Assembly: GCA_963924565.1 (NCBI GenBank)
Contig: OZ004608.1
Coordinates: 16,554,001-16,618,000, forward strand
Direction of reading: 5' to 3'
Origin: Ascidiella aspersa
Lineage: Eukaryota
Length of the DNA stretch: 64,000 bases
The translations under genes and the position numbers were made by a program. Below, piece by piece: positions 2,492 to 36,795 of this stretch; within the stretch, counting starts at the first letter, position 1; every line of letters starts with the position of its first letter. The notes under the pieces were generated by a model, which saw only the letters and a program-made list of their open reading frames with translations, was not told the origin of the DNA and ran no database searches.

Positions 2492-4785
2492 TACACATGC
2501 TGACTGGTGTCCGCGTTTTGCTATTCGAAGTTGTTCCAGCCTATTGCTGTGCTACTTGAAAATACGATAGTTGCTGCCGCTGTTTTTGTCTGGTGATGTA
2601 CTGCTAATTGCAACTGTTGTGATGCGTTAGTTTATACTGTGCTTAGCCGCCCTTAACATGACGACGTAATATTGAGATTTTATTTTTTCTTATACTTTGA
2701 TCTTTTTCGGCCACCCGCCGAGTTTTGTTTACTATATTACTTGCTTCAAAACCTTGTATGTAATATTGCAAAAATTATAATTTATAAAAAAAAATGTTTT
2801 ACAACTTGAATCGTGAGTCATTATGCTGTTATTTCAAAATCCCCAATGAAATTTTACTGACAACCCGTTGCAATAGTGCTCCTATAAGGGCTAACAATAC
2901 ACGCAATACCCTGTTTATTACGACAGATTGTGGCCCCGACAAATAGTGCTCCGTTTTTTCTGTGGAGGCGTATATTTGTAAGACTTTAGCTGGAAAGGTG
3001 CGTGCCCCAACCTATATTGGCCTTTCTGTTGTTTTTGCTGGGTATTTGTATCCGTCGTCCCAGTATTTTTGGTGCACCAGAAATATTCGTTACGTTATTA
3101 TTGTGCGCAAAGAAGTGGCGCGGTGATCTTTTGAACGTTGTGCACACCACCAATGTACTATTTCACGCCCGTTATTGTACAGTTCACGCATGCTTGTTTT
3201 GGCTAAATCGTAATCGTGGCGCCGCCTATTAAACCCTTACATGTTAAAAGTCGTTGGCACCACTGCCGTTTTGGCGATTTTACTATGGCCCACCAATACT
3301 TGTGATGATTAAATTCAACCTTTGTTGTCCGCGAAGCAAGCGCAGCCGCTGGCCCGCTTATTTTGTTCATTTAGCGCTCTGTTGTGTTTTCCCATGTTCG
3401 CTTCACTGGACTAAATTAGCCACCAATTATTCGTGCGCAATTATTTGACGTGTCTTCGCGGTCAGTCGCTTGCCGCCTGACGTCGTCGCGTCGTCATTCC
3501 CGACGCTGCTGTTTTCTTCGTAGTTATTTTATGGCAATATGAAGAAGAGGCCACTTTTCCTGACAAAGTGGCATGAATAAACAAAATACTAAAACAAAGT
3601 AGCGTAGGGTAAACTTTAAATTTGCTTGTTTTCAAAGTTTTCACTTTTTGCAGTGTTTGGAATTTCTGTTTTTGGTGTTTACATGTCACTTTGTTAAGTA
3701 AAGTGGCAACTCTTCACATACAAAGCACTTTCCTTTGCTCCCAATTGCACTGATACTTGAGGCACCCTGTTACTGCCCCGCTGTTAATTCTAAATAAAGT
3801 ATATATATATCATCGTTTTTGTTTGTTGGCTTCTATTAGATTTTCTAATCAATACGAAAAAGCTTCTCGTTAGAATGTATTTTTAACACTGTAAATTGTA
3901 TGGCAAAAAAACAATTATTTTTGTGTAAACAATTGCACCTCGCTTTGAGATGCGCTTAGATGTTACACAGTTATACCTGCATGTTGCACTTGTTATCCTT
4001 GTTTTACTTGAAGTTACTCTTAGCGTGAAATTTCAACTTAACTTGAGCCACATTTTAATGACATTTCTTTCAAAAAAGAATAGGATAATACGAGGTTATC
4101 TAAACTACTTTTATAGTAAATAAAAATCTTCACAACTTCATTTAAATGTCCACATTTATCGCTTGGTAGTAATGGGGAGGTCGTTTAGTTTCGCTGTACG
4201 TTTAATCGGCATACTGTTTCCCCGAGTAGCGCCTTGAAATAAACAAGTACAGTGTTGTTGATTGAGCTGCTGACACACGCCCGAGAACGCCCGACCCTCA
4301 TAATTTTTATGACCACCTCATGAATTTACTACCAGCGCGAAGCCAACGAAGATAATAAGTTAGTGTCCACGCATCAATCATTTACTGCAGAAGCAGAACT
4401 ACATCTGCAACACCCTTTTGTTAGTCATCGCTGCCAACTAATAGTCGGGGTATCACTCACAATCTGTAAATAAATCCAAACAAGTCTTGTTTCCGGTCGG
4501 TATGTGCCGGGGTAATTTGTCGCAATTTAAAAGGGACATGTTTTTATAGATGGTTTGCCAACTAATGTATTTACTTATCGAAAAACGCATATAAATATCG
4601 ACAAATGTATATAAATAACAAATTTTCCAAAAAACATACATCTGATGTACACAACATATTTACACTTTCGCGTGTCATATCAATGCTTTGTTGTTTCATA
4701 CGCAGCATCGTGCTCCTAATTTGATCGAACCCCCGCGAGGTCGCATACACAGCGGTCACGTATGCCAACTTGGCGATCACTAACT

Positions 4786-6303
4786 TTATTGCTCGATCAC
4801 GGCAACATTTTCGTTGCTCGTCTTTCCTCGCTCGCTTGACGACTGGCTGCCCGACTTTTGCGAGCTGCTCACCGACCACACGAAAGTTTCTTGTGGACTC
4901 TTATCGGCCCCGGGGGTCCTGGGTGTGTCGACGCGGCTCCCGCTAAACATGGACGCCTGCCTCGGGCTGCGGGACAGTCCTTCGTTGCCCGAGATGTCAC
5001 CACGGGCATTTGGATTCTTTATCCAAGGAGAGCACATCGCGAATACCCGGGGTCTCCAATCACGAAAGGTTCCAATGAGGGTAACGAGGTTGATGAGGAT
5101 GTTTGCGTCAAACACTAGGGTCGGTGCGATGTTGTACTGGTCCTTCACAAAGAGGATGAGAATCGACGCGCCTATGTCGGTGAGAATACAAATGCCTGCC
5201 GTGATGGTCGCTCGCTTGATCAAAGACATAAATCCCCGGCTTTTTGCGGCCTTCGAGTCCATCGTATTACGGTGTTTCACTAGCGGGTAAATAAAGAGGC
5301 CAAATAGAAGGGCCTGGAAGGCGACTGTTGAAACTGTTATGCAAATCCATGCGATGTAGTCGGGTATAACACTCTCCGACAGCAAACAGCCTTTGGGTGT
5401 CAACCGGTAGAATCGCGTGGTCGTAAAGAGGACTGTGCATCCCACCTCGGCAATGAAGATAAAGATTAGCGAGAGTGTGCTGACCACCTAAATAAGATGC
5501 AAAAAATAAGTCGCTTACTGCCACTTTCCCACTTGAACACACTTCACTATCTCGCAACCCAACTTCGCTATCGTGTACCCATAAGCCTTTAAATCAAACA
5601 GACGTATTTACTTTAACAATTTTATGCTTTAAGTTGCTAAGAAATGCGTGACATCTCTTCGAGGGAGCAGACGTGCGATCAAACTACTTTAATGCTCAAT
5701 ATATCGTATTGGTGGTGGGTTAATGATTTGTCGCATTTCTCAAAGATAGTTGTATTATTACACTTTATTAAGCGTATTAGCATCGACAAAATTTTTAATG
5801 ATAATCGTTTAATATACCTTGATGACGGGCGAGGACAAATGTTTCATCGACGGATCCGAATAGAAGAAGTTCTGTCTGGTCCACAGAAAACCATAAACAC
5901 ATGAAATGCAAACGGCGGTGAGGATAATCTTCAGCTTCAGAACCGTGTTGCAGTAATCAGAGTTATAAGTTTCAAGATATTGAGCCAGCAGCTCGTAATG
6001 TTCGCAGATAAAACGTGAAAGGAGAAACAGTGCGGCCAGCAGGGATTCCACCCTCATTACCATTGCGTAAGTGTGGCTCTTGTTCACTTTGTGCTTAAGC
6101 TTACGCAGTGAGCCCATTCTTCGGTTTTTGGGACGCTTGCATTCGTAAACAGCGAAGTTTACAACAATGTACAAAGTCACCAGAGTGAAAAACGATACAG
6201 AAGCCTCCAAGACGATAAATCTCGTCATATCGAACTCTTGTACATAAGTTTGACTTGCATTCGTAAAGGTGGCGTTGAACGTTACCGTTTCGGTCGTCGC
6301 CAT
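4786..6303 (-). CDS. Orphan 7TM receptor #1, two exons (6303-5818, 5487-4786), 395 aa
   Basis: ORFs 5809..6303 and 4786..5487 join in phase 0 (AAG|GTATAT ... TATTTAG|GTG). Seven hydrophobic segments, N-terminal NxT/S sites, a TM3 Cys, an ECL2 GC, and family motifs LWTRQNFFYSDPSMKHL, FQALLFGLFIYPL and FRDWRPR. Confidence 0.9.
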
Positions 6304-8170
6304 AATATCCTTGGGACGGGACTGTCTTTATTACTCAAGCGTCTTTATTACAGATGCTGTAATACTGCAACACCGGCTGTATTCAAAATGTAGCTTGAAG
6401 GTGCGCTTTCTACCCAAGCGTGCTAAGCCCTTGTAAACGGATTGGCTTTGTTGACAATTTTTACTCTATCCGTTACTTCTGTTGCTGGATTAGTCACCTC
6501 GAGGCTCGCCTGTTTGTCAGTCAGAATGTCGCGTCGCCCTACTGACGCACCTTGTCGAGCCGGCGATTGTTAGATTGCGCTTGTTCGAGGCTCTGCAGAT
6601 TCTAATTACCTTGTCCGTCGTGATTCGAGTAAATACGTGCTAACTCGTTTGCACTCTACGGTGTATTTGAAACTGTAAAACAAGAGTGCTAGTTAATTCA
6701 AAAACCAAAAATATAGTCTATTCTTCAAAGTTCGAAACTTTGGCAATATACATCCTGCTTTGAAATAAATGTTTCTTACGTTGCTGTACAAAAATGATTA
6801 AATTTGTAAATAAACACCTATATGTATGCATATTTATAAAGGTTTTTTATGTAAAAGTTCTACTGTAAATTACATTCTTTAGGTCAATAGTTTTTAACTA
6901 ATAAATAGTTAAAATTTTTAAAACGATTCTGCATATTATTTTAGCAAAAATGACCTCAAAATTGTAAGTATAATCTTAAACTTAAAGCCATACGCCAAAA
7001 ATCGCATGCTGATCTGCAAACGAATGTTGCTAGTGACACTAATACAAGAACGTGATCAAACATTCTTTGCAAACACCGCGACTTACAGAATGTATAACGA
7101 CACGGCTATCTGGTTCTTTACTCTCTACTGCCACTTAAATGACATAATACACGGAATCAACGCAGCGAGGACAAACAACTGTCAAGCGCCCAAGCGGGCA
7201 GTGATTCTTAATGATTTAAACTCCATACGTGCAGTCGTTCACTCAACACAGTCATTTTGTCGTTTGAGCAAAAAAACTTTGCGCCCTAGGCTATTCTATT
7301 GTCCAAAAAATCTATCAACCTTACTCGAACTATACAAAGGTTGGGCAGGTTTTAATCCGCCTTGTAACGAGATAATACCTTTCTCGTAAAACTATACGGT
7401 AGATTTATCAATAACCTGCTGTCTTTTTTCGTGTAAACAAATAATTAAATGTTGTAAGCCATAAGTTTTAATTGACATCCACAAACCGCGAAATAATTAT
7501 TTAAAATGTTTATTGAACTTAGTTTTTTGTTAAACCAGTATTATTTACCATCACGAACTCGGCGTTCAGTAGTGCAAGTTCACCTTCTTGTAATCTTTAC
7601 GAGAAGAAGTTTTAATCCTGTGTTGGAATGTATGTGTGATTAACTTGGGCCTATTATGTACTGTAATTCGGATTCAACCTTAGCGGTAAAAAATACATTT
7701 TACATTACATTCCAACTTAAACGGGTTGATCAAATCGAAATTTGTTGCCATTTATGTCTATTATTTAGGCACTAAACAACAACTAGAAGCTATAATAATT
7801 AAACAATTTTTTGTCTGAAACATTTTGGTTAAAAAACAGAATATATTCATTTAAAGGCAGTTAATTTGGTAATCGTAAAGTATATAATTGATTAGGTTAC
7901 TGAATAAGTTTTACAATCATTGCACTAATTAAAAACTGTTAATCGTTTGTACCGCAATATTTATGGTAATTCGACTCAGTTAAGATTTTATTTTGTTAGA
8001 TATAATTCATTTATCCGAGGTCGCTCACAGGTGACGCTGTGATTCATAAAATTAACAAAAGGGTAGCGTCACTGTTCGTGGAGCAGTACACATATGATCA
8101 CTTTACAACGACTAAGTGATTTAGTGCGATTGCCATGCGTCCATTGATAAACAGGTGTCTAATTGATTAA

Positions 8171-9178
8171 ATGTTTTCAGCAACTTCCGTGAGTACTTTT
8201 ATCGGCAACGAAAATGAGACGGCTACAGACGAATTTTTTGGAATTAGCATCGGTGCATTGGCCACCAACAGCGTACTTTTGCTTATGTCTTTTTATATTA
8301 CGACTGCACTGGCGGTCTATGAGTATAAATGTATCCTAAAACCAAGTAAAAGTCCGCAAACGTCAAGCAGAAGTAGTCAACTACCTCACTGGTCGAGACG
8401 TTTATGCTTCATAGGATCTGTGACGCTACTGATCCGGATTATTTTAGAAGTGATAGAGAACAGGTTCGGAATGAATTCGGACGTCGTTTGTCGAGTCATC
8501 CGGCCAACCAAGTCGGTACTGCATTTTTTGTTGGTTTCCTGTGTTTATCTTGTGCTATGGTTGCGCCAGAGGATGTTCTATAGCACACCTGTCATGGAAT
8601 ATTTGACCAACAAGTTCGTGCGATTCTTCAGCGCTTCCCTCCCGGTTATAATCCTGCTCACAAACGGCATCACCGTTTTACTAGACGTTACGACAAGAAA
8701 ATACACAAGCTCGTATCGCGGTTGCGTGGTCGAGTGGAGCCTTATATGGAAGAAGCTACCAGGCATATTTCTCTTTGTGTCGGGGACTTTTTTCCAGGCC
8801 ATTCTCTTGGGACTGCTTATATACCCTTTGGTAAAGCACCGCGACGACTCCCATGCCGCGAACGTGAGAGGCAGAAGAAAAGAGACGGCGGTCGTGCGTC
8901 GGGTAACAGCGGCGGCCGTCGTAACCGTGCTAATCGATGGCGTGAGTGGTTTAATTTCAATCACTGTGCTCTCTGGGTCTCTGGGGGTACTAAGGGCAAT
9001 GTTGTACGACCTCAACATGATGGTGGCGCTTCTGTGCGTCGTACTCAGCTTTGCCGATTGGCGGAAGAGGCTGTTTCCTTTCCACACCGAGGCCGATTCA
9101 AAAAGAAAAAGAAAATCGTCTAGCATGTCCGCACAAAGCGGCGGAAGCGGCGTAGTGACCGATGGATCGCGTTTGTGA
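8171..9178 (+). CDS. Orphan 7TM receptor #2, intronless, 335 aa; head-to-head with #1
   Basis: Seven hydrophobic segments; motifs LWLRQRMFYSTPVMEYL, RGCVV, FQAILLGLLIYPL and FADWRKRLFP are shared with the other three genes. Confidence 0.92.
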   Translation: MFSATSVSTFIGNENETATDEFFGISIGALATNSVLLLMSFYITTALAVYEYKCILKPSKSPQTSSRSSQLPHWSRRLCFIGSVTLLIRIILEVIENRFGMNSDVVCRVIRPTKSVLHFLLVSCVYLVLWLRQRMFYSTPVMEYLTNKFVRFFSASLPVIILLTNGITVLLDVTTRKYTSSYRGCVVEWSLIWKKLPGIFLFVSGTFFQAILLGLLIYPLVKHRDDSHAANVRGRRKETAVVRRVTAAAVVTVLIDGVSGLISITVLSGSLGVLRAMLYDLNMMVALLCVVLSFADWRKRLFPFHTEADSKRKRKSSSMSAQSGGSGVVTDGSRL

Positions 9179-11147: not shown

Positions 11148-11347
11148 TATTAGGTTTTTCTATGACTTAACTTTATGTTCACTGAAACGTTATCTTTGGT
11201 CAACTATGACTTATGAAGGGTCAGATCGTAGTTGGATGTTTCAGTGTCTTAATATGTTACTGTTAATCCCCTTCTATGTAAAGTTGTGCATACAAACAGG
11301 TAGCAGCCAATGGTACTATGGTTGTTTCTCGACGTGCTCGACTCTGA

Positions 11348-11420
11348 GCCTTTATAGCTTGGCTGTAGTGCGATGGTCCCGGTAAGGCCGGATGTCGTGA
11401 GTCGAGCCTCATCGTAGGCT
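11348..11420 (+). pseudogene. Degenerate tRNA-like / tRNA-SINE copy
   Basis: Homologous to 13721-13789 and ~33060-33118, with anticodon arm TGGTC CCGGTAA GGCCG. Shares an upstream TGGTTGTTTCTCGAC leader with the 13721 copy. Confidence 0.55.
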
Positions 11421-12452
11421 AGTTGTTTATCTGACCTGGCGTTGCTTGCACAAAATCCTAATTTTATCAGCTGGTTTTGGTTAGCCCTTCTGAAGGTTAA
11501 CTATCTGTTGTCTTATTACCATACTTTTTGGACTTATTGCGGCAAAACAACCCCAAGATTTTCGTTGAATTAATTAAGATTGTAATATATTTCCATAACT
11601 GAACATTTGTTGTTTTCAAAGGTCGGTCCGCGATAAAATTTTAGTCTGAAACCGAGTAGCGGTGCAACAAAGTTTGCCGACTCCTGAAATAAAAGACTTC
11701 AAACATTTTTAATTTTAAATCATTGTTGACAACTCTATAGGCATCTAGGTAACGGAAAACATTTTAGAAGTAGGGGCGGATGTTAGAATTTTGTTTGGGG
11801 ACCATAAATTTTTCAGGAATGTTACAAAAACTACGTCATAAGACAAAGTCTTTTAAAACACCAGTTGTCATCTGGCAAACTCGTGCGCAAAAAAATATGC
11901 AGCTGAAAACTAATCTAATATCAAACGAAGGGCGAAAAAATGTGTTTATTGTTTTGAATGACGGTGGTTGTAAGTTGTAACCTACTTTAACAAATACAGC
12001 ATATCTCGAGTTTATGATCTTTTAGCTAAATAAATTTGCTTAACACGCACAGAACATAAATAATCGACAGAAGTTCACACGAAGCGCGAATCATTTTTTG
12101 TCTACACACATTGTTAGTAGATTTTGGGGACATGGCCTGGTTGACCCTCAGAAACCACCCCTGTTTAGGAACGCAGACTTTTTTGTCCCACTGCCCAAAA
12201 GGTAGAAACACCGAAAAATGCATTAATATAAGGCGTAAGGCGAAAAATGCATTAATATAGGGCGAAAAAAAGAATGATTGCCAAAATTTAGGCAAAAAAT
12301 AATGTTTTTTGATACAGGATGGTTGTGTTAAAAATATGGGTAAAACCTGTGTAAGATCCAAGATATAAACGTAAACCACCATGGGAACATATCCAATAAA
12401 TTGCAGATATAAAAAAAATAGGCATAGCAGTGAAATAACAAAAGTTATACAG

Positions 12453-13217: not shown

Positions 13218-14243
13218 CAGGCTTCGGCAACCTTTTGTATGCAGTGTGCCAGTTTATGAATAATGTCAAAATATGTACAATGTGCGTTACACGTTTTTCT
13301 ATGTTTGATTTTGAACTGCGAACCAGGGCTCCGAAGTCAGTTACAAACAGCCCGAGTCCGACTCCAGCCAAAATTTGAACCCGAGTTAGACTCCTAAGTC
13401 CGGCTCAGACTACACAGCTTGTATTTCACTGATTTACATAAAAATGGATATTCATTAATTCAATCATAGGGCTCGTTACGATTTATAGTTTGCTTCCTTA
13501 CCAGTTTCGAAATTTGGTACTGCACATGAGCACACGTCGGACTCGGGTATAGTTTTACCTAGGCTTACTCGAGTCCCGAGTCCGACTCCTCAGCCCTGCT
13601 GTGATCTGACATCTAATTTACGAATGATCTGACATATAATTTACGTATCTTGGGAGACGCCATTAAACCTAATTTCATAAGCATTGGCGCATGGTTGTTT
13701 CTCGACTCGTTCCCTTCTGAGCCTGCATAGCTCAGTTGGTAGAGCGACGGTCCCGGCTTGACTCGTGAGTTCGAACCTCACTGCAGGCTAGTTGTTTTTC
13801 TAGTCTGCTCTGCTTGCATGATAGATCAACAGATTCGGTGAGTCTGCGATGGCTTTCGGTCTACTACAGTATCAGTTTCGTTTTTAGCTTGGTTTCTCAG
13901 TCGCACAAAATCACACGTGCTTACTTTTAATGTGGAATGCATTGCAAACATCACGCTATGTCGGGGGACATTGTGACGTAATACGAACGGTTAGTCGCAA
14001 AAAAACAACTTTAACGCAAACAAAAAATAATGTTAAATACAACAGTTAAGACACCAATCGGGACACGAACTGGAAATGTGTGCAACCATTTCGTTAGCGC
14101 TAAAGTTAATGATGTGGTAGTGATGTAATGGATGTACTTTATTATTAAAGTGATATAACGTGCGCGTTAAATCATTTGGCATGCCTTGAACAATCATCTC
14201 GCGTGTCAAAAGTGGCACGCGTGCCAGGGGTTGCCGACCCCTG
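13218..14243 (+). mobile_element. hAT MITE of the same composite family as 10468-11147, with a nested MITE and tRNA-like insert
   Basis: Ends CAGGCTTCGGCAACC ... GGTTGCCGACCCCTG; degenerate TSD GTCTATAG/GTCCATAT; internal homology to 10468-11147 and to 48332-49339 (reverse). Confidence 0.75.
13721..13789 (+). pseudogene. tRNA-like sequence (SINE head or tRNA pseudogene), anticodon arm partly deleted
   Basis: Perfect 7-bp acceptor stem GCCTGCA/TGCAGGC; D arm GCTC-AGTTGGTA-GAGC (A box); T arm GTGAG-TTCGAAC-CTCAC (B box); T-run downstream. Confidence 0.75.
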
Positions 14244-14572
14244 GTCCATATGATTTCCTGTTTTTCATTATTCTTATTAAAGCATGTTATCACGAAATGT
14301 AATTACCGCCAGCTGGAATATGCTATATAGGCCCTAAGTGATTTTTATTTATGCCAAAAGCATATACTGTTCATTGTGGAGTCTAGATCGCGTAAGTTAC
14401 GGAGGTAAATTATTGTACGTATATCGTAAGTAATGTTGCACTGAATATGTGAATAATAGAAATCACCTTGACCCTTGCAAGATAAATGTCGACCTTAATT
14501 CCTGATCAGTAACAGCAAAATAATCTAGCAAAGCTAGCAATTCAGGTCAGACACATTAACCAGATCTTAAAA

Positions 14573-14616
14573 AGATATATATATATTTCGCCAACTAAGG
14601 CATCGTCAGTATATCT
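14573..14616 (-). ncRNA. Minimal type I hammerhead ribozyme (inverted pLTR copy)
   Basis: Exact reverse complement of 15145-15188. Confidence 0.78.
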
Positions 14617-15144
14617 GAATAAAAACAAACGCAAGTTTTCCACCCGTTGGTCTACCCATCGTTCGTTATGGAACGCATTTCGACACGATGGTCTAAGTGA
14701 CAAAACCGCACTGCAACATCACTACGCCATATCCCACCCCGATATACTTGATTGTAGACCGTTAATTTCTAGCTGTTATATTGTTCAGTTTGTTGCCCAG
14801 CCACCGTTCCACATGTTAGACATTTGTGAGGATAGATGGCTTAACAAAATTAAAGCCAGAATCAATATTCAAAAAATGGTACTGCCCCAAATTAAGTAGT
14901 TGTCTAGTTCTTATCGTTTTCTTACGCCTCTACTCCATTTTTTCTTTTTGCCTTGCCGTTTTTGTGCCGTTATTTTGCGTTGCCGCGTTTCTCTCGACCC
15001 GTTCTTATTGCTTCTGTACAGGGGTTGTACAACTTGGATGCCATTACTATTTAACAGCTTTTATATTTTAGTTATTTTACTTTGTTTTATTTAAACTTTA
15101 ATGTTTTCTGACTCATTCTTATACTGTTGCGTTTGTTTTTATTC

Positions 15145-15188
15145 AGATATACTGACGATGCCTTAGTTGGCGAAATATATATATATCT
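15145..15188 (+). ncRNA. Minimal type I hammerhead ribozyme
   Basis: AGATATA-CTGACGA-T-GCC-TTAGTT-GGC-GAAA-TATA-TA^TATATCT: intact core, 7-bp stem I, 3-bp stem II, palindromic ATATAT stem III. Confidence 0.8.
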
Positions 15189-15329
15189 TTTTAAGATCTG
15201 GTTAATGTGTCTGACCTGAATTGCTAGCTTTGCTAGATTATTTTGCTGTTATATCGTAAGTATCTGTAAGTACTGTTTAATTGTTTCTCGTTTGTTTATA
15301 CGCAATAAATACAATTCCATTGTGGCTCG

Positions 15330-16690: not shown

Positions 16691-19196
16691 ATTCGACGCA
16701 ATTATTGTTTATTATTAAGTCCAGCGTTAAACGTAGGCTATATAAATTTATTGTGAAAGTGTAAGATGTTTTTCACCTATTTACGTAACTAAATTAAGGT
16801 GCATATTTGGCAATCCACTCATAGGGGTGCAATTTATTCACCCACAATACATGAGTGGAAAATATCCACCATATGCTATTCAACCTACACACTTTACAGT
16901 TTGTGGCCTTACCAGTTTCGAAATTTGGTACTGCCCATGAGCACGTCGGACTCGGGACTCAAGTAGGCCTACTTACTGAAGTCCTGAATCCCGAATCCGC
17001 ATTCAACAAAACAACCTACTCCGTCGAGTCCCGAGTCCCAACCCTATACTTTAATAAACAGTAGCCCACACAGCAATTGTACAACAGGTAGAACAAACAT
17101 AGCAAGAATATAAAAGCCCATCAATTTAAAAATATCGAAAAAGATATTTGAAATTTTCAAATGAGAATCCACAAGAATTCAAAATATCACTCGGCACCCT
17201 TGAGCGATAAAAACGACACCCAAGGGTGCCGTGGAACTCTAGTAAGCCTACATAAATGAACGAAATAGCCTTTATGTTTCTACGGTTTCACTTTTCAATC
17301 TGGCGGGCAGATCATTCCGCAAAACCTTTCGAACATTGATTTGTTGTTTTAGTTTTAGATTTCTACCAAGAGATTGGTAAGAAGCGGCAGGATACCATGT
17401 TGCAGTAAATTTTACCTTGCTTTTTTAAAATAAGTTAAATAGCAACCAAAAGACGTTTTACAAAAAACTTCTAAACCAGTGTTTTCCCAACCGGGGTTCC
17501 CTGGCAACTTTATGTGCCGTATCTAATGCTCCAGGTTGCCGATTGATATTTGGAAATCTTAAAGAATATAATTTTCGCTAAAGTAGTAATCCTCTTGATA
17601 CAATTCTTTGTGTAAGATAAGAATACAATAAATCAAGTGGTATTTTTCTACATTGTGTAAAGTCGATGTTTGTTGTTTCCGCAGCCTACCGTCTGTTGTA
17701 ACATTATGCTAAATTTGCAATCTATTTACTTTTTCTAAAGGGTTCCGCAAGCCATAAAAGGTACTGTACCAAGAAAAACAGTACCTTTCATGTACTGTAC
17801 CAAGAAAAACGTTGACCTAAATACGTGCCCCTTAGCATGATATTTATCAATACAGATTCAATAAGGAAGCAAAGCGTTATGCAGTTAGTCATGCCTAAAC
17901 GTGATGTCATCACAATAGAAAGCAACGGCAACCGACGCAAGAGTTATTCAAAATATTTCGAGGTGGTAGGATTTAGTAGTTACGAAACTTAGTAGTGCCA
18001 ATGACACATAGGGCCTATTAAGAATAACTACTTTTAATACTTAAAACTTCATAGGTAGCCTAATGCAAAGAGGCTATCAGTTTGAAATAGTAAGGTAGTC
18101 TGTAGGCCTACATATCTGTTTCAATAAACATTGGCTTAAAAAGTTATACATAGATTATCCTGAAGTTTTTTAACCTCGCTAAAAGTTAATGCTTATTATA
18201 ACAAAACATTTTAAACTGAAGAATAAATGTGATTTAAATATAGTCGGTCTAATGCTGGTGTATGTCATAAGTTCATTTGTAGCGTTGATTTAAATTTTAT
18301 TTAGGTAAAAACTATTGCTCGTACTTAGAGATAGTTATCTTAGTTAGGACTTATTTAAATATTTAACTAACTGCTGGATATCCTGCGCTTGGTAATCGGT
18401 AGTTCGAATAGAATACCTTTTTATATTGCCTCAGAAGTAAAATATATCAATATAAACTTATTGATAAAAGTTACAGAAGTAAAATATATGGAACACATTA
18501 AACACTTGTTTTATTAAAACTAATACTTGGACTTTTAGACCATTTTAATAGATAAGCCCATTGAGAAATGTTTACCCCGTCGAGGTCAATTTAAATTCAG
18601 ACAATCTTGATGTCTGTTGACGTGTTCCATACAGCAAAGCCATGGCAAAAGACGTTTAAGTTTTTTCGGCAATTTGTTGACGGAAAACGGCTAACTGGAA
18701 TGTAGGGAATAATGCAGCACGTCTAGGAAGCAGGTTACTAATAGTATAACAGTTGGGCCGCATAAAAATCAGTTGGCACATAACAATAGCAGTGGAAAGT
18801 TAGACAGCAAGTGGAATTAACTTTGTTAAATAGCCCAAAGCATTGACTATAAGGGGCGCCACACACACGTCGATGATTGCACGTAGGATCGAGGAAAGTA
18901 AAAAACATCTGGAGGTCCACGCATAGGCAAAACTAGTATGCTAATGTGATACAACTATAGTTACTAGAGCACTGGTGAAATTCACAAATTAACTATAAAT
19001 CCGCGTCTTGTCATAGATATTCGTGAGCCTTTGTAAAAACTTAGTTTCATTGTTTGGCACATAACTAAGCAAAAAGGATAAATAGGAAGTCATAAAGCTT
19101 ACGTAGCATTTGTACAAAAACGAAATCTGTTTTTTAAAACTACTTTTTTTAGGTGAACGTTTTATGAAAATTCGCAAAAGTGTTTTATATAGAGTT

Positions 19197-20273
19197 ATGA
19201 ACACTGTGGACTTTGAAGTTACCGCTAGAATGTTTCCGAACAACACGACATCTCAAGCTGAACTAACCTCAATCAAAAATACTACATCCTACGACGGGCA
19301 GTTGATTGGTGCTCTGGTGCTATGCACTGTGACGCTGATTGCCACCATCTATCTCACAACCGTGCTTGTGATTTACGAAGTGAAGGTCAGGCAGAAGAAC
19401 AGAGATAGTCTACCCCTGACCCGATCGCGTTGCCAATCCAGGTTGGTGAGAGACAAGTGGGCGGATTGGATGCGGCTGCTTTCTTTGATTGGATGTGCTA
19501 CCCTCCTGTGTCGCGTGCTCATTGAAACTGTCGAAATCCGCCACGGACAGGGCTCCGACGAGGTTTGCGCAATTATCCGGCCTGTGAAGGCGTTTCTACA
19601 GGCGACGGTGGTGACGTGCATCTACTTGGTGTTGTGGATACGACAGCGCAAGTTCTACAGCCTGCCTGTAATGGAACATCTTACCAACAAGTACATTCGC
19701 TTTCTCAGCAGCTCGATTGTCGTGATAATGGCCACGGCCGACGCCGTTACAGTTTGCCTTTACATCTTTACACGAAAGTACACGGATTCGGAACGTGGAT
19801 GTGTGGTCGATTATAGCCTCGTCTGGAAAAAACTTCCGGGACTGTTTATGTTTCTGTCCACTGTGCTGTTTCAGGCAATCTTGCTTGGGTTGCTGATTTA
19901 TCCACTTATCAACCACAGGCGCAGTATTCAAGTCCAGAGCACCGCACAGCGGCGCGAGATTGTGCTGATACGAAGAGTGACCGTCGCCGCACTTGTAACG
20001 GTCGCCATCGACGGTCTTTCCGGGTTAATTACGATCACGGTACTCTCTGGCTCCTTTGGTATCTGGCGACCGCTTCTCTACGACGTGGATATGTTCGCGG
20101 GACTGTTCTGTGTGAATCTAACGTTCAACGATTGGAAGATTCGATTTTGGCCCTGTTTTGCTGACAGCAAGGAAGTGAGAGGCACACTAAACCAAGTGTA
20201 TAGCAACATGGAAACAGAATTTACGAACACAGTTGATGGGACGACAACCACCGGGATGGATGGCGCCGCATAG
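19197..20273 (+). CDS. Orphan 7TM receptor #3, intronless, 358 aa from the MNTVD start (alternative in-frame ATG at 19164)
   Basis: 7TM pattern with LWIRQRKFYSLPVMEHL, RGCVV, FQAILLGLLIYPL and FNDWKIRFWP. The MNTVD ATG is conserved in paralog #4, whereas the 19164 ATG is ACG there. Confidence 0.9.
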   Translation: MNTVDFEVTARMFPNNTTSQAELTSIKNTTSYDGQLIGALVLCTVTLIATIYLTTVLVIYEVKVRQKNRDSLPLTRSRCQSRLVRDKWADWMRLLSLIGCATLLCRVLIETVEIRHGQGSDEVCAIIRPVKAFLQATVVTCIYLVLWIRQRKFYSLPVMEHLTNKYIRFLSSSIVVIMATADAVTVCLYIFTRKYTDSERGCVVDYSLVWKKLPGLFMFLSTVLFQAILLGLLIYPLINHRRSIQVQSTAQRREIVLIRRVTVAALVTVAIDGLSGLITITVLSGSFGIWRPLLYDVDMFAGLFCVNLTFNDWKIRFWPCFADSKEVRGTLNQVYSNMETEFTNTVDGTTTTGMDGAA

Positions 20274-20687
20274 AATTATTCACAGATATTCTGTTATTTA
20301 TCTGGTGCGGCGATTGTTTTCATTGTGCCAACAATAACTAACCTAAATATATTGATTACAATTACAGTGTGGCTTCGTACCGACACATATTTAATTGAAG
20401 ATCCAGGCACAAACGTTTCGGTGAGATTTGTGCTATTTGTTGTTTGGTGTTATAAAATGTATATATAATGTGCCTATTCGTTGATTTTAGAAAACCACCC
20501 ACGCCTACATGCTTGCTCGTCCAGCCAATTAAAGCATTCGAAGCGTGTCACCAATAATAAACTTTAGTTGGATACATTTTAAGTTTTTGGGGAGAGACCC
20601 GTGTAGGAGAGCGCGTTTTTGAATTGTTAAACCTGAAGTACCCGATTGGGCGTCTGCGCAGGCCTGGACGCGGAAGTAGACGCTATA

Positions 20688-21301
20688 AATAGTGTGTATC
20701 TTGCAACTAAAGCACTTCATTTCCCCAGATCGTCCTTCCAGGTGTCAAATTACGGGCAAACATTTCTAGCAGTGTTGTAATGACTTAAGTCATTGACTTG
20801 ACTTAAGTCCTTTGACCAAAATGACTTGACTTGACTTAAGTCTTTTGGCCAAATGACTTGACTTGGACTTAAGTCTTTTTGGCAAATAACTTGGGAGTAA
20901 ATTAAGTGTTTTTCATTAAAATTTATCTCAAGTTTAGCGTATTAAACACTTTAATTGCTGCGTATTGCGTATGTGTTTTTTTAGTTAAATTGTTGCATAT
21001 AATCGGACGAGTTTACCAATTTTAATAGTTTAATAATTTACTTTTATGTCAATGACATGACTTGAAATTGACTTGCTCTCATAATGACTTGACTGGGACT
21101 TGACTTGGGCAACCGATGACTTGGACTGGGACTTGACTTGTTATTTTTGCAAAAGACTTGACTTGGACTTAAGTTATTTTTCAAATGACTTGACTTGGAC
21201 TTAAGTCGTTTCAAAATGACTTGTTTACAACACTGATTTCTAGACATTTGGGTTTGCCACTTGTTATTACAAATCGTTCCAGTAAGGAATAAATAGGAGG
21301 T
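20688..21301 (-). pseudogene. METTL4: METTL4 3'-end fragment (~50 codons) split by a MITE
   Basis: 20688-20769 plus 21244-21301 align to ~38745-38884 of intact METTL4 (PPIHSLLERF...CLEMFARNLTPG..WGNEVL region). Confidence 0.88.
20770..21235 (+). mobile_element. 466-bp hAT-like MITE rich in GACTT repeats, inserted in the METTL4 fragment
   Basis: TIR CAGTGTTGTAA/TTACAACACTG; 8-bp TSD ATTTCTAG, present once in intact METTL4 at 38819-38826. Confidence 0.92.
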
Positions 21302-22543
21302 ACGAGGAAATTTAAGTCTTGTGTTTTTGTAATCTATCTAACTAAACGCGTTGTGCGTACTTTGATTCAGACTTCCCTAACAAAAACCCAAAAACGTTTT
21401 AAATGTTTAAACGAATTTGGAATTTTAACACAAAATTATTTCGTGCACCACAATATTAAATCGTGATTCACAAGTTTAACGCGTTGATTTCAACTGTTGA
21501 GCTTCAAGCACAAAAAAGTAAGCTATTTTTAAAATTTATTAACAGATCTTGCGATCGGCGTTTTAACTTAGACATTTTCGATATATGCATGATTTGCGAG
21601 ATTCTATAGTATAGAATCTATACATTTAAATGTTTTGATAAAAACTCGTACACAAAATAATTTACAGACTTTTCGGTCGGCATTTTAACTTATATATTTT
21701 TTAATATTTTTAAAAGTATTTTTACCTGGTAAGCTAGGCAGAATCAGTTATTGTGAAAACCATGTACAACGACAAGTTTCGTTTTCCCATGATTCCGATT
21801 GGTGATTTGTCCTTCGTCGGCGGCACTTGTTTCAGCTTGTACTTCATCAGTAGCGTTCCGTATTTCAAGCAAATGCTTTGATGATGCTATGGAGCGTCTC
21901 GTGACGTATCTTTTGACGAGATTAGTTCCTCCAAAAGCTGGCTTCTTGCAGGTCCCAAACATGACCGCAAGTTCAAAAGAGGGTTTGTTATGGTCCAAGG
22001 CTTCGTTTGTCCAACCAAAGGTTTCGTCCTTATAGTTAGGTTGAAGACAACGAGCGTTGGAATGGATGATACCAGGACGTAGTATTTCTGACGATTCTTA
22101 ACCTTTTTGAAACAGGTTTAATAAAATTGCCAAGAAACAACTCGTTCAAGGTACTGCGAAAATAACCAAACGGCTAAATCGCTCAACAGATGTTATTGAA
22201 CTCTTTTTTCCGCCTTAGGGTAACCCAGATAGACGCGGTTTAACCCTTAATTTAACGCTTAATGGTAGTGAAAAATTACTATAGTAGGCTAACTGGTGTT
22301 CGGAGACACGTCGGGTCGCCAATTTGTGGGGCGCGAGTTTAGTTTGTTGAAACTTTTAATAGTTTATTCAAACAGAAGAGAGTAATAATTGACAGTTTCG
22401 TTCTGACTCCAACTTGAAGATGCGCATCTAACTCGCGAGCCGCCACAAGACGTTCAGGTTATTGGAATAATTAGTTGATAAGAACAACCAGTTTCAAACT
22501 ATAGAACGGCAAAACAATCAACGCTATAAACAGCACCAGTCGA

Positions 22544-25500
22544 CAGGGGCGGCCGCAGAAAATTTTCCAGGGGGGGGCAATCAGCGAAAATCAAAAAGGG
22601 GGGTCTTGAATTTTCAACTTAGGGAATTCCCCTATTTTTCGTCTGACTTAATGAATAATGAGTAATGACGTCATAAAACAGTGACAGTATGACGTCATAG
22701 AATGGTGATTGCAAGACGTGATAAAAAAAAACTAAACAGAAACAGCCAAATACGTCCAGCAAAAGCGACCACGTGTGTCGTAAACAATCCTGTCAGGCGC
22801 CAGCTGCGAAACACGATAACTTCAGGCAAAAAAAACAAACCAAGACCGTGAAATATCTGTGATTAATTGTGGTAAAATCACACATAATTCGACTATCAGC
22901 AGCGCATTTTGTTCCATGAACGGAACGAGCGCTAAAAAATTGTCTTTCACCATCTGCAATACTAAACGAAGATCGTTTTTTCCTGGTGTTATTATGCCAC
23001 GATTAGCGCAACAATTGCGCCGAGCTGTGTGCCAAGTCAGCTAAATTACAAGCCGCGGTTGAGGGAAAATAAGTTGTGTCCATTGCACACTTAGCACGTG
23101 GTGTAAGAGTATGCTTAAAGAGCATAATTTTGCGTTAAACATCATTACTTAAAAATGGAGACTTTGAAACGCGCACGACAGTCACCATTATACCTCCTTT
23201 TAAGAATCTGCTTCAGTTAAACAAATGAAACGGTGTTACACTAAGGAACATACTGCGTATAACTCGACGTTTTTTAACGAGAAAAAATAAAGAAGGTTTG
23301 ATTAGCGTTGTCAATTGTAGAATACACACTTGCTAATCAGTCAACCTACACAAATAACGAAAGAGAAAAATTCCAGCGTTTATGGTCGGCCAAACAAAAG
23401 ACGAAAAACGGCGTTTTGCACTCGATTTTGGTTTCGCATTAGATTAAGACGCGTGACCCAATTACTTTAAAAGCACGCCGCTTCAAACAGTTTGTTAAAC
23501 CATGACAAAAACGAACAAAAAACGATATTATCACTTACAAAAAGAGGGTAATAACTCCCACCCCCCTGGATACGCCACTGGGGGCAATGGATAATGTATA
23601 ATATTTTTAACCTTAATATACATATTACAAAAAAAAATCCTAACTGGCAACCCTGGCCGTGACTACCGAAGAAGCTGATTAATTCAAACAGCAACTGACG
23701 TAAAAATGAAGTAACTGAGAGATAAGGATATTCCCAATGAACTAAAAATAATTATCAATTAGCGAAGCATATAACGTGATCGATACAAGACAACAAAGAA
23801 TCAATAGGCTACTATAGGCTAGCTTCAAAAAAGAAGTTCTAGGAAACTATGCTACCAATACCACTATTGGCACTATTTTTGTGTCCCGCCAGCTGATGTG
23901 GATATTTTAATTGATAGCTAATTTACCCCTAATAGTGAGGAAATTTACCCCCAGGGGTAAATTTACCCCAGGTTAAGAAAGGCTGATTTAAGGTGTCTAT
24001 GGTTGTAGATGTACATGTAAACATTAACTCAGTATGTAGTCATTTTAAGAATCGTCATTGGTGCGGCGATTGTTTTCATTGTGCCAACAATAACTAACCT
24101 AAATATATTGATTACAATTACAGTGTGGCTTCGTACCGACACATATTTAATTGAAGATCCAGGCACAAACGTTTCGGTGAGATTTGTGCTATTTGTTGTT
24201 TGGTGTTATAAAATGTATATATAATGTGCCTATTCGTTGATTTTAGAAAACCACCCACGCCTACATGCTTGCTCGTCCAGCCAATTAAAGCATTCGAAGC
24301 GTGTCACCAATAATAAACTTTAGTTGGATACATTTTAAGTTTTGGGGGAGAGACCCGTGTAGGAGAGCGCGTTTTTGAATTGTTAAACCTGAAGTACCCG
24401 ATTGGGCGTCTGCGCAGGCCTGGACGCGGAAGTAGACGCTATAAATAGTGTGTATCTTGCAACTAAAGCACTTCATTTCCCCAGATCGTCCTTCCAGGTG
24501 TCAAATTACGGGCAAACATTTCTAGCAGTGTTGTAATGACTTAAGTCATTGACTTGACTTAAGTCCTTTGACCAAAATGACTTGACTTGACTTAAGTCTT
24601 TTGGCCAAATGACTTGACTTGGACTTAAGTCTTTTTGGCAAATAACTTGGGAGTAAATTAAGTGTTTTTCATTAAAATTTATCTCAAGTTTAGCGTATTA
24701 AACACTTTAATTGCTGCGTATTGCGTATGTGTTTTTTTAGTTAAATTGTTGCATATAATCGGACGAGTTTACCAATTTTAATAGTTTAATAATTTACTTT
24801 TATGTCAATGACATGACTGGAAATTGACTTGCTCTCATAATGACTTGACTGGGACTTGACTTGGGCAACCGATGACTTGGACTGGGACTTGACTTGTTAT
24901 TTTTGCAAAAGACTTGACTTGGACTTAAGTTATTTTTCAAATGACTTGACTTGGACTTAAGTCGTTTCAAAATGACTTGTTTACAACACTGATTTCTAGA
25001 CATTTGGGTTTGCCACTTGTTTTTACAAATCGTTCCAGTAAGGAATAAATAGGAGGTACGCGGAAATTTAAGTCTTGTGTTTTTGTAATCTATCTAACTA
25101 AACGCGTTGTGCGTACTTTGATTCAGACTTCCCTAACAAAAACCCAAAAACGTTTTAAATGTTTAAACGAATTTGGAATTTTAACACAAAATTATTTCGT
25201 TATATTTAACACAAAATTATTTCGTGATAAAAAAAACTAATCAGAAACAGCCAAATACGTCCAGCAAAAGCGACCACGTGTGCCGTAAACAATCCTGTCA
25301 GGCACCAGCTGCGAAACACGATAACTTCAGGCAAAAAAAACAAACCAAGACCGTGAAATATCTGTGATTAATTGTGGTAAAATCACACATAATTCGACTA
25401 TCAGCAGCGCATTTTTTTCCATGAACGGAACGAGCGCTAAAAAATTGTCTTTCACCACCTGCAATACTAAACGAAGATCGTTTTTTCCTGGTGTTATTAT

Positions 25501-27131: not shown

Positions 27132-27332
27132 AATGTTGCACTCATCACCTTGACCCTTGCAAGATAAATGTCGACCTTAATTCCTGATCAGTAACAGCAA
27201 AATAATCTAGCAAAGCTAGCAATTCAGGTCAGACACATTAACCAGATCTTAAAAAGATATATATATATTTCGCCAACTAAGGCATCGTCAGTACATCTGA
27301 ATGAAAACAAACGCAACAGTATAAGAATGAGT
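27132..27332 (-). mobile_element. Solo Penelope-like pseudo-LTR with hammerhead (27255-27298)
   Basis: Near-identical to 14462-14634 and to the reverse complement of ~15111-15250. The stem I change GATATA>GATGTA keeps pairing through a G-U wobble. Confidence 0.78.
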
Positions 27333-27909
27333 ATTTAATCTTTAATGTTTCTGACAAAAACTTGTTTTTTCGTGGTGGAGTTACGTCACACTCCGACTAT
27401 GATATCAATTGAACTGTTAAGTACAATAAAAGGGCCAATCGCGAAGATTGGGTTTGGGCCCTGGGGGCAGTTCTATTCACTATAAATGAGTATAACTGAC
27501 CCTGGGGGTCCTAGCCAGATGTTGCCAAAAATTCCCCCAAAAGATCGACTTTTTGAAAGAATTTTTTTTTTTGCCATCTAATTTATCAGCTTTACCTATA
27601 TACCCTACCTAGACCTGCTCCTTCCTCTCACTCCCCTTTTCTCCCTTTAGCACCTTTGGTTGGCAAGCGGTGATTGAATTGGCCCACACCCTACAGTGCG
27701 GCACTACAGCTGTACAAACTTCTAAATATAGTCTGCTGCCCGACACTAACAGCAATCAGTACAGAAACTTGTTATTAACAAGCATCGAGCCAGCGACGAT
27801 CACCAAACATGATCAGGCTTTTACATTTGATTTAAAAAAGGAAATTTTTCATTCACTTTACCATTTTTAACAATGGAAGCCGGGAAATAAACTAAAGTTT
27901 ATTACTCCA

Positions 27910-30900
27910 TGTAATGATTTATGTTTCTATTGTTGACTCTGATTTCTATGCTATCTGCTTCTGTGCGTTTCTCCTTTCTTTTCCTTGCCTCTCTCCGTAA
28001 TTATCATTATACGTCCCGCGTCTTGTTACATTCTTCCCTTCCCTTTATAACTCGTGTAGCTTTACTGTGCTTCGTCAGTCTTTGTCAGTTTCTCTTATTG
28101 GGTACTCTTTTATATTCGTTACTAATAACGTTCTTTTTGTTACAGCACTCTATGTTGTAAATTGTTGATTAAAGCTATAGTAAACGAACTTGACGACGTT
28201 TATTGTTAGTTACTTCAATTTAATCAACAAAATTTTCCATGATGGAAAACCGACAACTTTTGCGGCCTAAAACTTTGACGATCGAGCCCGAAGCTCCTAA
28301 TGCTGCTCGACACTTCGCGTATTGGTTACGCTCCGTTAACGACTTTATCGACCATCTCGACGAAGGCGATAACACCACTTCCGCTGCAAACAGGAAGCGC
28401 TTCATAGTCAACTGTTTATCTCCGGATATATTCTCTTATGTAGAGGATGTTGACTCCTTCGAAGAAATCGTCAGTACATTAAAACAAATGTACGTGAAGA
28501 AGAAAAATAACGTATTCGCTCGCTATATACTTGTAAGTCGTCATCAAGGCCCCGACGAGACACTCGCGGAGTATTTGCGGGAACTTAAACTTTTAGCGAA
28601 GGATTGTACTTTTCTTCCAGTATCGGCTCATCAATACAAAGACGATCTTACCAGAGATGCGTTTATAAACGGTCTTTCGGCTCCGTTCATCCGTCAACGT
28701 CTCTTGGAAATAGAAGATCTTGATTTAACTAAGGCTTCTCAGCTTGCTGAAAGCCTGTCCAAAACGCAGCAGCAGTCTGTTTTGATGGGCAAGACAATTC
28801 CTTCTATGGCGTCTGTTCCCGCCTTTAAAGAGCTGGAAAGCGACGGGAATGGAAGTACCGCCACTTCTTCCGAGTCTATTTCTCTGGCAACGGCTGACAG
28901 AAGCTTAAAAGCCAAAGGTAACTTGTGCTATTTCTGCGGTGGTGGACAGCACAGCAGCCGCGCGACCTGTCCTGCCCGTAACGCTACTTGTTACCAATGT
29001 GGAAAAAAGGGACACTTTTCACGAGTCTGCCAGAGTCGTTCTTCGTATTCCTCCCGCCGGGTGAATTCACGACCCGCGTCTCCGACCGCCGTTGGTTCTT
29101 CCATGATTTCTGGTCATCTTCCGCCCTCGTTTCTGGCCGGTGCTCCTTCCTGTCTGGGTCCTGCGTTAGTCGATGCGACTTTACAATCCACTCCGGTCCA
29201 AGTTTTGATCGACTCCGGGGCTTCCGAAAACTTTGTCAACAAAAGGTTAGCCACCAAGCTTCGTCTGAAGACCTTCGGACCCCACTCCTCCGTTTCCATG
29301 GCCTCCTCCCGTCTCTCTATCGCTACTTCGGGAAGAACCACCGCTACCATAGCCCTACTAGGTCGATCATACATCCTAACCTTTGGTGTTTTAGATGACC
29401 TTTGTGCTGACGTTGTTCTCGGTCAGGACTTTCTGAAGAAACATGTCGAGGTTAGTTTCTTCCTGGGTGGACCGGAAGCACCCCTGAAAATTGGATTCAA
29501 TGATTTCTCCCACCTTTCTTTGGCCGTCGCTGACTTAAACCCCCCTCGCCTATTTGAGTTTTTGCTTCCAGGTTGTACTCCCATAGCTGCACGCTCTCGT
29601 CGATATAGTAAAGAAGACTGGAATTTTATCAATGATGAGATCCGGCGTCTCTTGGAGTCTGATATTATAGAACCTGCTCGTTCTCCTTGGAGAGCTCCTG
29701 TACTAGTGGTCTCTCGTGGTAACAAGAAGAGACTGGTTGTCGACTACTCTCTCACCATAAACCGATTCACCCAGTTGGACGCCTATCCATTGCCGAAAAT
29801 TGAGGAAATAGTAAACAAGGTCGCTCAAGATAAGTTCTTTAGTTCGCTCGACCTGCGTTCCGCTTATCATCAAGTTCCGTTGTTACCTGGGGAGCGACAC
29901 TACACGGCTTTTGAGGCTGGCGGAAAACTGTATCAATACAAACGCCTGCCGTTCGGCGTCACTAATGGGGTCGCCGCGTTTCAGCGCGCTATTGACGAGT
30001 TTATTGAAGCTAATAAGCTGAAAAAGGTCTATGCCTATCTCGACGACATAACTGTAACGGGTTCGACTTTGGAGGAACATGACAGCAACCTTCGAGCTCT
30101 ACTTCAAGCTGCTGCTCGGCAGAATCTCACTCTTAATGAAGAGAAGTCAATGATTCGCCGTACTTCTTTAGATTTCCTGGGATACCGGATTAGTCAAAAC
30201 AAAATACAGCCGGATCCTCAACGTCTACAGCCTCTTCTCGAGCTCTCGCCACCCACGTCACCCAAAGCCTTGAAACGCGTCTTGGGGATGTTCTCCTACT
30301 ACGCTAAGTGGATCAAGGACTTTTCTCGTCGCGTACAGCCGTTGCTCACTGCAAATCGTTTTCCTCTGAATGAGACGGCCGTCCGTTCCTTCCGTGATTT
30401 AAAGACTGAGCTCGAAAGGATAACTCTTGGGGCTGTTCGCGACGGCGTTCCCTTCGAGGTGGAAACCGATGCTTCCGACTTCGCTATTGCTGCAGTTTTA
30501 TCCCAGAACGGGCGCCCTGTAGCTTTTATGTCACGTACTCTTAGCAAGTATGAGCGGAACTATCCTGCTATTGAGAAGGAAGCGACCGCCATTGTCGAAG
30601 CAGTCCGCAAGTGGGCTCACTTCCTAAAGGGCCGTAGTTTTACTCTCATCACCGATCAAAAGTCTGTGTCCTATATGTTCGACCGAACCAATCGAGGTAA
30701 AATTAAAAACGCCAAGATCACTTCGTGGAGGCTAGAGTTGGGTCAATATTCTTACGATATCCGTCATCGCCCTGGTGTTCAAAACGTGGTCCCCGACGCT
30801 CTATCACGGGTATGTGCTTTCACAGGTTCTACGCGAAATCTTGAGGAGTTGCATAAAGCGATGGGACATCCGGGATACGCCCGTATGTATCACTTCATAA

Positions 30901-36172: not shown

Positions 36173-36530
36173 CAGGGGTGGGCAACATACGGCCCGCGAG
36201 CCAGATCCGGCCCGCCAACGCAAATCATGCGGCCCTCGACCTATCTTACAAACTGGGCTCGAGGCCATTTCTCATGTTTTTGGTTTTTAAACTGCGCAAA
36301 TTTTTTTGGTGCTTTATGCAAATCTTGTTCCTGCATCGAATGTAAAGTGTAGTTTAGACCCATTTTCAACTGCACAATAGCATACCCTAAAAAGTGTTAT
36401 CCCCGATAACAGTCGTTAATGATGCTTGTTATAATAAGAGGGGTAAAGTCTATACACATTTATATTTTAACGGCCCCACCTTTCTGAGTTTGGTTTTGGC
36501 CAGCGACTAGAAAAAGGTTGCCCACCCCTG
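36173..36530 (+). mobile_element. hAT MITE ~265 bp upstream of the 7TM #4 start; absent upstream of #3
   Basis: TIR CAGGGGTGGGCAAC/GTTGCCCACCCCTG; perfect TSD CCTTACGT. Confidence 0.9.
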
Positions 36531-36795
36531 CCTTACGTGATGCATTGCATAGACAAAACTATAGTAAGCTAATGCGATACAACTATAGAGCACCGGTGAA
36601 ACTCACAAACTAACTATAAATCCGCGTCTTGTCATTTATTTGGGCGAGCTTTTCTAAAAATTTATTGTTATTTTTTGTCACACAACTAAGCAAAAAGTTT
36701 ACGCAGCATTTGTACATAAACGAGAGGTGGTTTTAAAACTATTTTTTTTAGGTGAACGTTTTACGGAAATTCCCAAAAGTGTTTTAAATAGACCA

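Follow-up and report, generated by a model that had tools for sequence, protein, structure and literature searches.

A probable recent, 5'-truncated Penelope-like insertion with an inverted pseudo-LTR and opposite-strand hammerhead motifs in Ascidiella aspersa

Introduction

Penelope-like elements (PLEs) are known to insert as inverted, 5'-truncated copies with a tail of 30-40 bp at either end (PMC8557442), and in Adineta vaga copies with inverted pseudo-LTRs (pLTRs) are accompanied by 9-10-bp duplications and a 31-bp tail (PMC3846280). Dual hammerheads lying 100-700 bp apart on opposite strands have likewise been reported (PMC4209133). The combination of inverted pLTRs, a tail, a target duplication and opposite-strand hammerheads is therefore already published, and the architecture described below is a known one. 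The element PAc (Poseidon, Anolis carolinensis) cuts and extends both target strands in vitro, its reverse transcription starts at two internal sites with the interval between them corresponding to the tail, and its insertion is independent of its hammerhead, which cleaves only with protein (PMC11167929).

Here we have analyzed a 64,000-nt stretch of DNA from Ascidiella aspersa (contig OZ004608.1, positions 16,554,001 to 16,618,000; hereafter the window), in which an earlier note had described a PLE insertion with paired hammerhead ribozymes. As a locus the insertion matters little, being very probably a dead insertion of known architecture. Both of its 3' termini, the microhomology at its junction and its target duplication are readable to the base, and anatomy at this level bears on the unsettled origin of PLE head-to-head insertions and their tails.

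Results and Discussion

Anatomy and ends of the insertion

The features of the insertion, and of a third copy elsewhere in the window, are as follows:

14420..14432, plus strand: left copy of the putative 13-bp target-site duplication, an exact match to 15250-15262, abutting the family terminus at 14433/14434
14433..14509, minus strand: PLE tail of 77 nt, on the left arm only; long 3' end, 176 nt past hammerhead C3
14510..14634, minus strand: left arm, an inverted, 5'-truncated pLTR copy, 100% complementary to 15127-15251
14573..14616, minus strand: candidate minimal type I hammerhead, minus copy, with core 14586-14609 and predicted cut after 14580; mirrors 15145-15188
14633..14634, no strand: 2-nt microhomology at the head-to-head inversion junction; the arm ends at 14634 and the X2 and X5 contigs join at 14633
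14633..14899, plus strand: C-terminus of a PLE GIY-YIG endonuclease, by homology to relatives; 88 codons plus stop
14900..15144, plus strand: U-rich 3' UTR and upstream pLTR part (125 of 245 bases are T)
15127..15251, plus strand: direct pLTR part common to the left arm; short 3' end, 99 nt past hammerhead C3, no tail
15145..15188, plus strand: candidate minimal type I hammerhead, plus copy, with core 15152-15175 and predicted cut after A15181
15250..15262, plus strand: right copy of the putative 13-bp target-site duplication, whose first 2 nt fit the element too
27133..27350, minus strand: third copy, a stub of the same family that consists of a solo pLTR plus tail and shares the outer terminus; hammerhead at 27255-27298

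The inverted arms are perfect over 125 nt with a spacing of 492 nt, and since they are still 100% identical the insertion event appears to be recent. The 13-nt direct repeat, within which the earlier note placed the insertion, is exact, is the sole repeat of at least 9 nt near both ends and is absent elsewhere in the window; its probability of arising by chance is ~4e-8 per register or ~1e-6 across 25 registers. No empty site was found among the 15 of 87 joints listed from public runs, and the target duplication is thus read from the sequence alone. At the left outer end, 55 + 48 RNA reads and 29 contigs from public runs exit into mixed flanks at 14433/14434. The 77-nt tail is common to the left arm and the third copy and absent from the right arm, and the 3' ends, counted from hammerhead C3, lie at +176 (left arm) and +99 (right arm). 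The third copy is 98.8% identical to the left arm across 173 nt, with one A-U pair of stem I changed to G-U and an 18-nt deletion in its tail; for this copy the best candidate target duplication, of 6 bp, was unconvincing. The earlier note mentioned neither the tail nor the junction microhomology, nor did it report the third copy.

The stop codon is separated from the hammerhead core by 253 nt. A pyrimidine tract followed by AG at 15145-15146, which are also the first two bases of the plus hammerhead, raises the question of a pLTR intron ending at helix I of the hammerhead, an optional feature that is present in D. virilis; upstream there are only three GT donors, all poor, and no splice joint at 15145-15146 was found among the 15 of 87 joints listed.

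The locus thus resembles Penelope of D. virilis and Pen2/Pen2a of Adineta vaga in its 5' truncation, its inverted 5'-truncated copy at the 5' end, its one-arm tail, its short target duplication and the hammerhead in the pLTR (PMC3846280; PMC8557442). It differs from the EN+ PLEs described there in its tail length, which is 77 nt here and ~80-100 nt in relatives as compared to 30-40 bp, and from Pen2/Pen2a in a duplication of 13-14 bp (window and relatives) instead of 9-10 bp and in an inversion junction that carries no palindrome in the window.

The endonuclease fragment and its relatives

Between the arms lies an open reading frame fragment, given in the earlier note as 87 codons; it is indeed stop-free, but its element-derived part begins one codon earlier, at 14633, and comprises 88 codons. 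Neither the GIY nor the YIG motif is present, as both would be located upstream of the fragment, and a start codon is lacking as well; the fragment hence is not a functional protein. Its sole Pfam match, Ntox5 (E 0.014, below the cut-off), was judged to be chance, and NCBIfam gave no match.

A phmmer search against 1.84 billion representatives returned 210 matches at E<=1e-3, and in the long relatives the fragment always aligns at or near the C-terminus. The best full-length relative (P0002; 974 aa, 52%, E 3.9e-20) comes from the ascidian Phallusia mammillata, as do P0038 and P0005. Pfam scans of ten relatives found GIY-YIG in all ten at E<=0.014 (four above the curated cut-off and one at it) and RVT_1 in seven, the latter domain belonging to the relatives and not to the truncated window copy. 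Their layout is RT, a CxxCxxC linker zinc finger and GIY-YIG with CCHH; the invariant H, R, H, H, E and N columns are retained in the window fragment, and the two cysteines fall outside it. The AlphaFold model of P0002 (mean pLDDT 88.8) gave telomerases as its top seven Foldseek matches in the PDB, at low TM-scores of 0.24-0.30, as would be expected for a modelled PLE protein, while a profile search against PDB sequences found 0. Judged by homology, the fragment belongs to the RT+GIY-YIG Penelope-like elements, as the earlier note had proposed.

Two contigs from public runs locate the break in the native reading frame. One of them (X2, 579 nt) matches 14633-15146 with 1 mismatch and reaches the YIG motif on its upstream side; the other (X5, 494 nt) joins the window at 14633 too. 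Both indicate that the native ORF breaks at this base. As the inverted arm ends at 14634, the two sides overlap by 2 nt at the junction. No full-length copy of the exact window family was recovered.

The features of EN+ PLEs found are a C-terminal GIY-YIG with CCHH and a telomerase-related RT (the latter on relatives), an inverted pLTR with tail, an exact 13-bp target duplication and a hammerhead in the pLTR. Assignment to the Hydra clade (no CCHH, CxCX5C linker, DKT) was rejected, the relatives having CCHH, CxxCxxC and DKDG, and so was assignment to Naiad/Chlamys (N-terminal endonuclease, mostly no canonical hammerhead), the endonuclease here being C-terminal and a hammerhead present.

Two database entries among the relatives deserve mention. 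P0005 is annotated as a cytoplasmic methionine-tRNA ligase yet is a PLE endonuclease fragment, likely a mis-annotation, and P0027 is a PLE RT-EN fragment under the label of a bacterial metagenome-assembled genome, probably reflecting animal DNA in the bin.

The reverse transcriptase lineage

Among 4,704 candidates, 43 proteins were recovered by the RT search, 35 of them (query included) at 32-48% identity, after which identity drops to <=28%. These 35 share DKDG, YPLFKTHK and GIxTG[DE]NxSVSxAN-type motifs and are separated in a quick tree from 8 unlabelled outsiders by a long branch (SH-aLRT 100), an arrangement that carries a long-branch warning. The pattern of a CX2-5CxxC zinc finger between RT and EN matched 29 of the 35; in five of the six misses the EN motif was not matched either, and the sixth fitted a variant window of the pattern.

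In their order of RT, CxxCxxC linker and GIY-YIG with CCHH, the full-length relatives are like Neptune and Nematis. The zinc finger is not diagnostic of Neptune since it is common to Nematis and Naiad; the long linker of the relatives is nearer to the Neptune and Naiad rows of Fig. S2 than to Nematis (PMC8557442). Unlike the Neptune and Nematis rows of Fig. S1, motif B is GIxTG[DE]NxSVSxAN and not AMG-type, with DKDG and YPLFKTHK upstream, and it differs from every clade row compared in that figure, which gives about two examples per canonical clade (PMC8557442). Neptune itself is paraphyletic (PMC8557442). The supplement text of the same paper, where matches in figures and in gapped or DNA sequences would escape, contains none of four lineage motifs, DKDG, Phallusia or tunicate names, and our literature search found no paper joining Penelope-like elements, ascidians and hammerheads. 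This long-branch RT lineage with 77-100-nt tails, matched to no named clade in a comparison made without labelled references, may be new; it may well also be present in Repbase under Neptune or Penelope names.

The hammerhead motifs

The plus-strand motif consists of a 7-bp stem I (15145-15151 with 15182-15188), a stem II of 3 bp preceded by an unpaired U and the palindrome AUAUAU as stem III, and together with the conserved core and a NUH site this points to a minimal type I hammerhead. Core match and 44-mer fold agree with the earlier note on the core, stem I, stem III and the predicted cut after 15181, and the identical minus-strand hammerhead that it reported was recovered as a core match at 14586-14609 within the perfect arms. 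A third core lies at 27268-27291 on the minus strand, so the catalytic core is intact in 3 of 3 copies, as compared to 0.01 chance matches expected in the window. Folded on its own, the 44-mer forms stems I and II at -8.0 kcal/mol, with a z-score of just -1.4, and the covariance-model check suggested in the earlier note gave no support, as Rfam models at E<=10 reported no hammerhead in the window. The case for the hammerheads therefore relies on the core sequence and on the relatives. The exact pattern had 0 matches in viral contigs and 0 in JGI metagenomes.

Like the minimal type I hammerheads of metazoan PLEs, the motif has a CUGANGA core, an extra base before stem II, a G10.1-C11.1 pair and a short palindromic stem III (PMC4209133). 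Unlike the hammerheads described there it has, as read from its bases, a shorter stem II (3 bp), a longer stem I (7 bp) and an AU-only stem III.

Related loci and public runs

Related loci were taken from a JGI metagenome search in which 367 of 600 stretches were confirmed, and the best 80 of these 367 loci were used; the number of assemblies behind them is small, and some insertions are represented more than once. The hammerhead pattern applied to them was sequence-only, with no pairing requirement, and stem pairing was assessed by core-anchored counts. With it, the 80 loci and the window together gave 34 hammerheads, as compared to 0.4 in shuffles. Stem III is palindromic in 19 of the 26 distinct hammerheads; pairing at positions 1-4 is seen in 22-24 of them for stem I and in 22-25 for stem II, and stems I to III show changes on both sides. 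A sense hammerhead was located 290-504 nt past the stop in 16 of the 26 loci with room downstream, and none was found within 700 nt in the remaining 10. Upstream, an inverted hammerhead was seen in 6 of 65 loci and a direct one in 4 of 65. Two loci (L052:4942-5427 and L074:4912-5397) carry a direct 194-nt repeat after the ORF and, ~1.5 kb downstream, a hammerhead variant with a non-palindromic stem III.

Two of the related loci, L045 and L056, repeat the window anatomy, with 14-bp duplications (one mismatch) and a tail on one arm; their ends lie at +98/+179 and +91/+194, respectively. The ends of a further inverted insertion, L025, could not be resolved, and its junction is an imperfect palindrome. 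In the family of L038 we counted ends over BLAST matches at >=83% identity, excluding the query, 2 matches cut by an edge and 3 continuing into the ORF. Seven ends fell at +88 to +99, 11 at +187 to +195 (three of which are probably one insertion) and 1 at +70, so that 18 of 19 resolvable ends lie in two clusters. These two discrete clusters show two fixed termini to be a property of the lineage. Four inverted insertions were examined, and in three of them a short end is paired with a long one, the fourth being L025. These three pairings fit two-site, two-strand priming and could also be due to chance, which we estimate at about 0.1.

The summed contig depth in X1 was 353,000-541,000 in tail bins as compared to ~4,400-5,600 in ORF bins, a contrast that is not copy number and that suggests many short pLTR stubs. 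RNA run X24, of which about 6 in 100 was read and whose species is possibly other than that of the window, gave 602 matched reads, only 53 of them at >=99% identity. The matches listed showed no pile-up of ends, at a low depth and with a library type in which cleavage ends are not marked. RNA reads across the ORF end showed the strandedness expected for the sense direction and came from diverged subfamilies.

Origin of the insertion

We consider it very probable that the locus is a dead, recent, 5'-truncated insertion of an EN+ Penelope-like retroelement, from a lineage with a Neptune-type zinc-finger linker, probably formed by two-strand priming. The earlier identification of a 5'-truncated PLE with an inverted pLTR is borne out by the RT+GIY-YIG homology, the target duplication and the PLE-type minimal hammerheads. 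The RT-EN protein of a full-length copy located elsewhere would have nicked both strands of an AT-rich target ~13 bp apart, and from each nick reverse transcription would have started at one of two fixed sites within the RNA, +99 and +176 relative to the hammerhead core. One cDNA of ~620 nt would have reached the endonuclease region and the other would have measured ~200 nt; the two may have been joined head to head via the 2-nt microhomology, with gap filling yielding the 13-bp duplication and the hammerheads travelling as passengers of the pLTR. Two-strand priming is inferred here from the in vitro results on PAc, which the locus resembles in having a tail delimited by two fixed 3' termini, an AT-rich target and a hammerhead shortly upstream of the termini (PMC11167929). 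Unlike PAc, which belongs to the Penelope/Poseidon clade and whose ORF starts inside the hammerhead, the window hammerhead has an ATG directly followed by a stop.

The same element could alternatively have been inverted by self-priming or template switching, through fold-back on an antisense or nascent strand and without use of both target strands. Self-priming on an antisense template is favoured for the head-to-head Penelope structures of Adineta vaga (PMC3846280), the 2-nt microhomology is compatible with a template switch too, and the junction of L025 is an imperfect palindrome. However, the window junction lacks such a palindrome, the left arm has 77 nt that are missing from the right arm and is thus not a simple copy of it, and in vitro PAc acts on both strands, cleaving and extending each (PMC11167929); we therefore regard this route as unlikely. 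A non-autonomous element, retrozyme-like or MITE-like with terminal inverted repeats, moving as an 830-bp unit is very unlikely. Terminal inverted arms within a target duplication, and short pLTR stubs covered far deeper than the ORF part, would suit such a unit, and the window hammerheads share with non-LTR retrozymes a non-coding, PLE pLTR-derived context and type I structure (10.64898/2026.07.22.740005). In contrast, the X2 and X5 contigs cross 14633 into native ORF and not into the inverted arm, no listed piece bridges the inversion junction, the arms are unequal and the third copy is a solo stub. Retrozymes are moreover described as head-to-tail, same-strand tandem arrays (10.64898/2026.07.22.740005), unlike the head-to-head truncation product seen here; retrozyme identity was rejected, as it needs at least 2 consecutive tandem hammerhead units and the window copies are inverted or solo.

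Returning to two-strand priming, we speculated if the relatives form an unnamed deep clade of C-terminal EN+ PLEs in ascidians, and probably other invertebrates, with the three RT motifs, 77-100-nt tails, 13-14-bp duplications and inverted insertions that regularly pair the short and long RT start sites on opposite strands. We hold this to be possible but rather doubtful. If true, genomes would preserve in the short/long pairing the trace of a dimeric mechanism that primes on two strands, and an unnamed RT lineage would represent a new PLE clade, with intact-looking ascidian ORFs suited to a PAc-type in vitro assay.

Predicted behavior of the hammerheads in RNA

The earlier note treated the two hammerheads as a pair and expected transcripts from either strand between 7TM-like ORFs 2 and 3 to carry a self-cleaving motif. 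Neither expectation is borne out. As the hammerheads are on opposite strands, each RNA holds one sense ribozyme only and dimerisation in cis is impossible, and whichever direction read-through takes, transcription passes the antisense arm before the ribozyme. Equilibrium folding of a 901-nt read-through RNA predicts a pairing probability of 0.0 for stems I and II, and forcing them costs 67 kcal/mol, so that on both strands the 125-bp hairpin is predicted to mask the ribozyme at this locus. Read-through RNA would accordingly be a dsRNA substrate for silencing or editing and not self-cleaving. It is tempting to assume cooperation between hammerheads placed on opposite strands of inverted pLTRs, but mutual silencing is the outcome to be expected.

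It appears very unlikely that the locus nevertheless influences transcripts from the interval separating 7TM genes 2 and 3 by equipping them with active self-cleaving motifs. All three copies do retain an intact catalytic core, and an RNA starting between the arms would be without the antisense arm, Penelope having an internal pLTR promoter; in such RNA stem II forms with a probability of 0.96, and only 3.9-5.5 kcal/mol are needed for the active fold. Yet even there stem I has a probability below 0.01, losing to a local competing hairpin, and minimal PLE hammerheads are reported as inactive as monomers and weak as dimers (PMC4209133), with one PLE hammerhead needing protein (PMC11167929). The self-duplex of stem III is very weak, at -0.8 kcal/mol as compared to -4.3 and -4.8 kcal/mol for two palindromes from relatives. 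The element lies 5.2 kb after 7TM-like ORF 2 and 3.8 kb before ORF 3, and nothing links it to the expression of these ORFs. In the parent element, the motif would most likely cut tandem precursor RNA weakly, as a dimer or aided by protein.

Other features of the window

The 7TM-like gene cluster comprises ORFs at 4786-6327, 8171-9178, 19107-20273 and 36658-37872, which have 6-7 hydrophobic segments; two of these genes gave no match in Pfam, and the look-alikes of the 7TM-like protein in the Atlas are mostly chordate clusters. The block 17800-20304 is duplicated at 35055-37903. A tRNA-like match at 13721-13789 (Rfam 44.9 bits; not called by ARAGORN) lies in a repeat at 13691-13818 that is shared with 11318-11450 and is probably a tRNA-derived SINE, whereas a SAM-III match among the Rfam results at E<=10 was rejected as chance.

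At 27909-32202 we observed an LTR retrotransposon of the Gypsy type whose two 309-bp LTRs are 100% identical, indicating a very recent insertion; it has a 1073-aa ORF on the minus strand, whose gag-pol motifs were judged by eye. An uninterrupted MT-A70 methyltransferase ORF, which we take to be METTL4-like, occupies 38731-39942 on the minus strand. Pieces of its 3' end (38745-38884) recur at 20688-21301 and 24444-25057 with 93-95% identity; they sit in a duplicated block (20303-21467 and 24059-25228) and are possibly gene fragments captured by a mobile element. Finally, 41032-42965 is a nested tandem and inverted repeat with units of ~215 nt and 500-bp arms at 96.6% identity.
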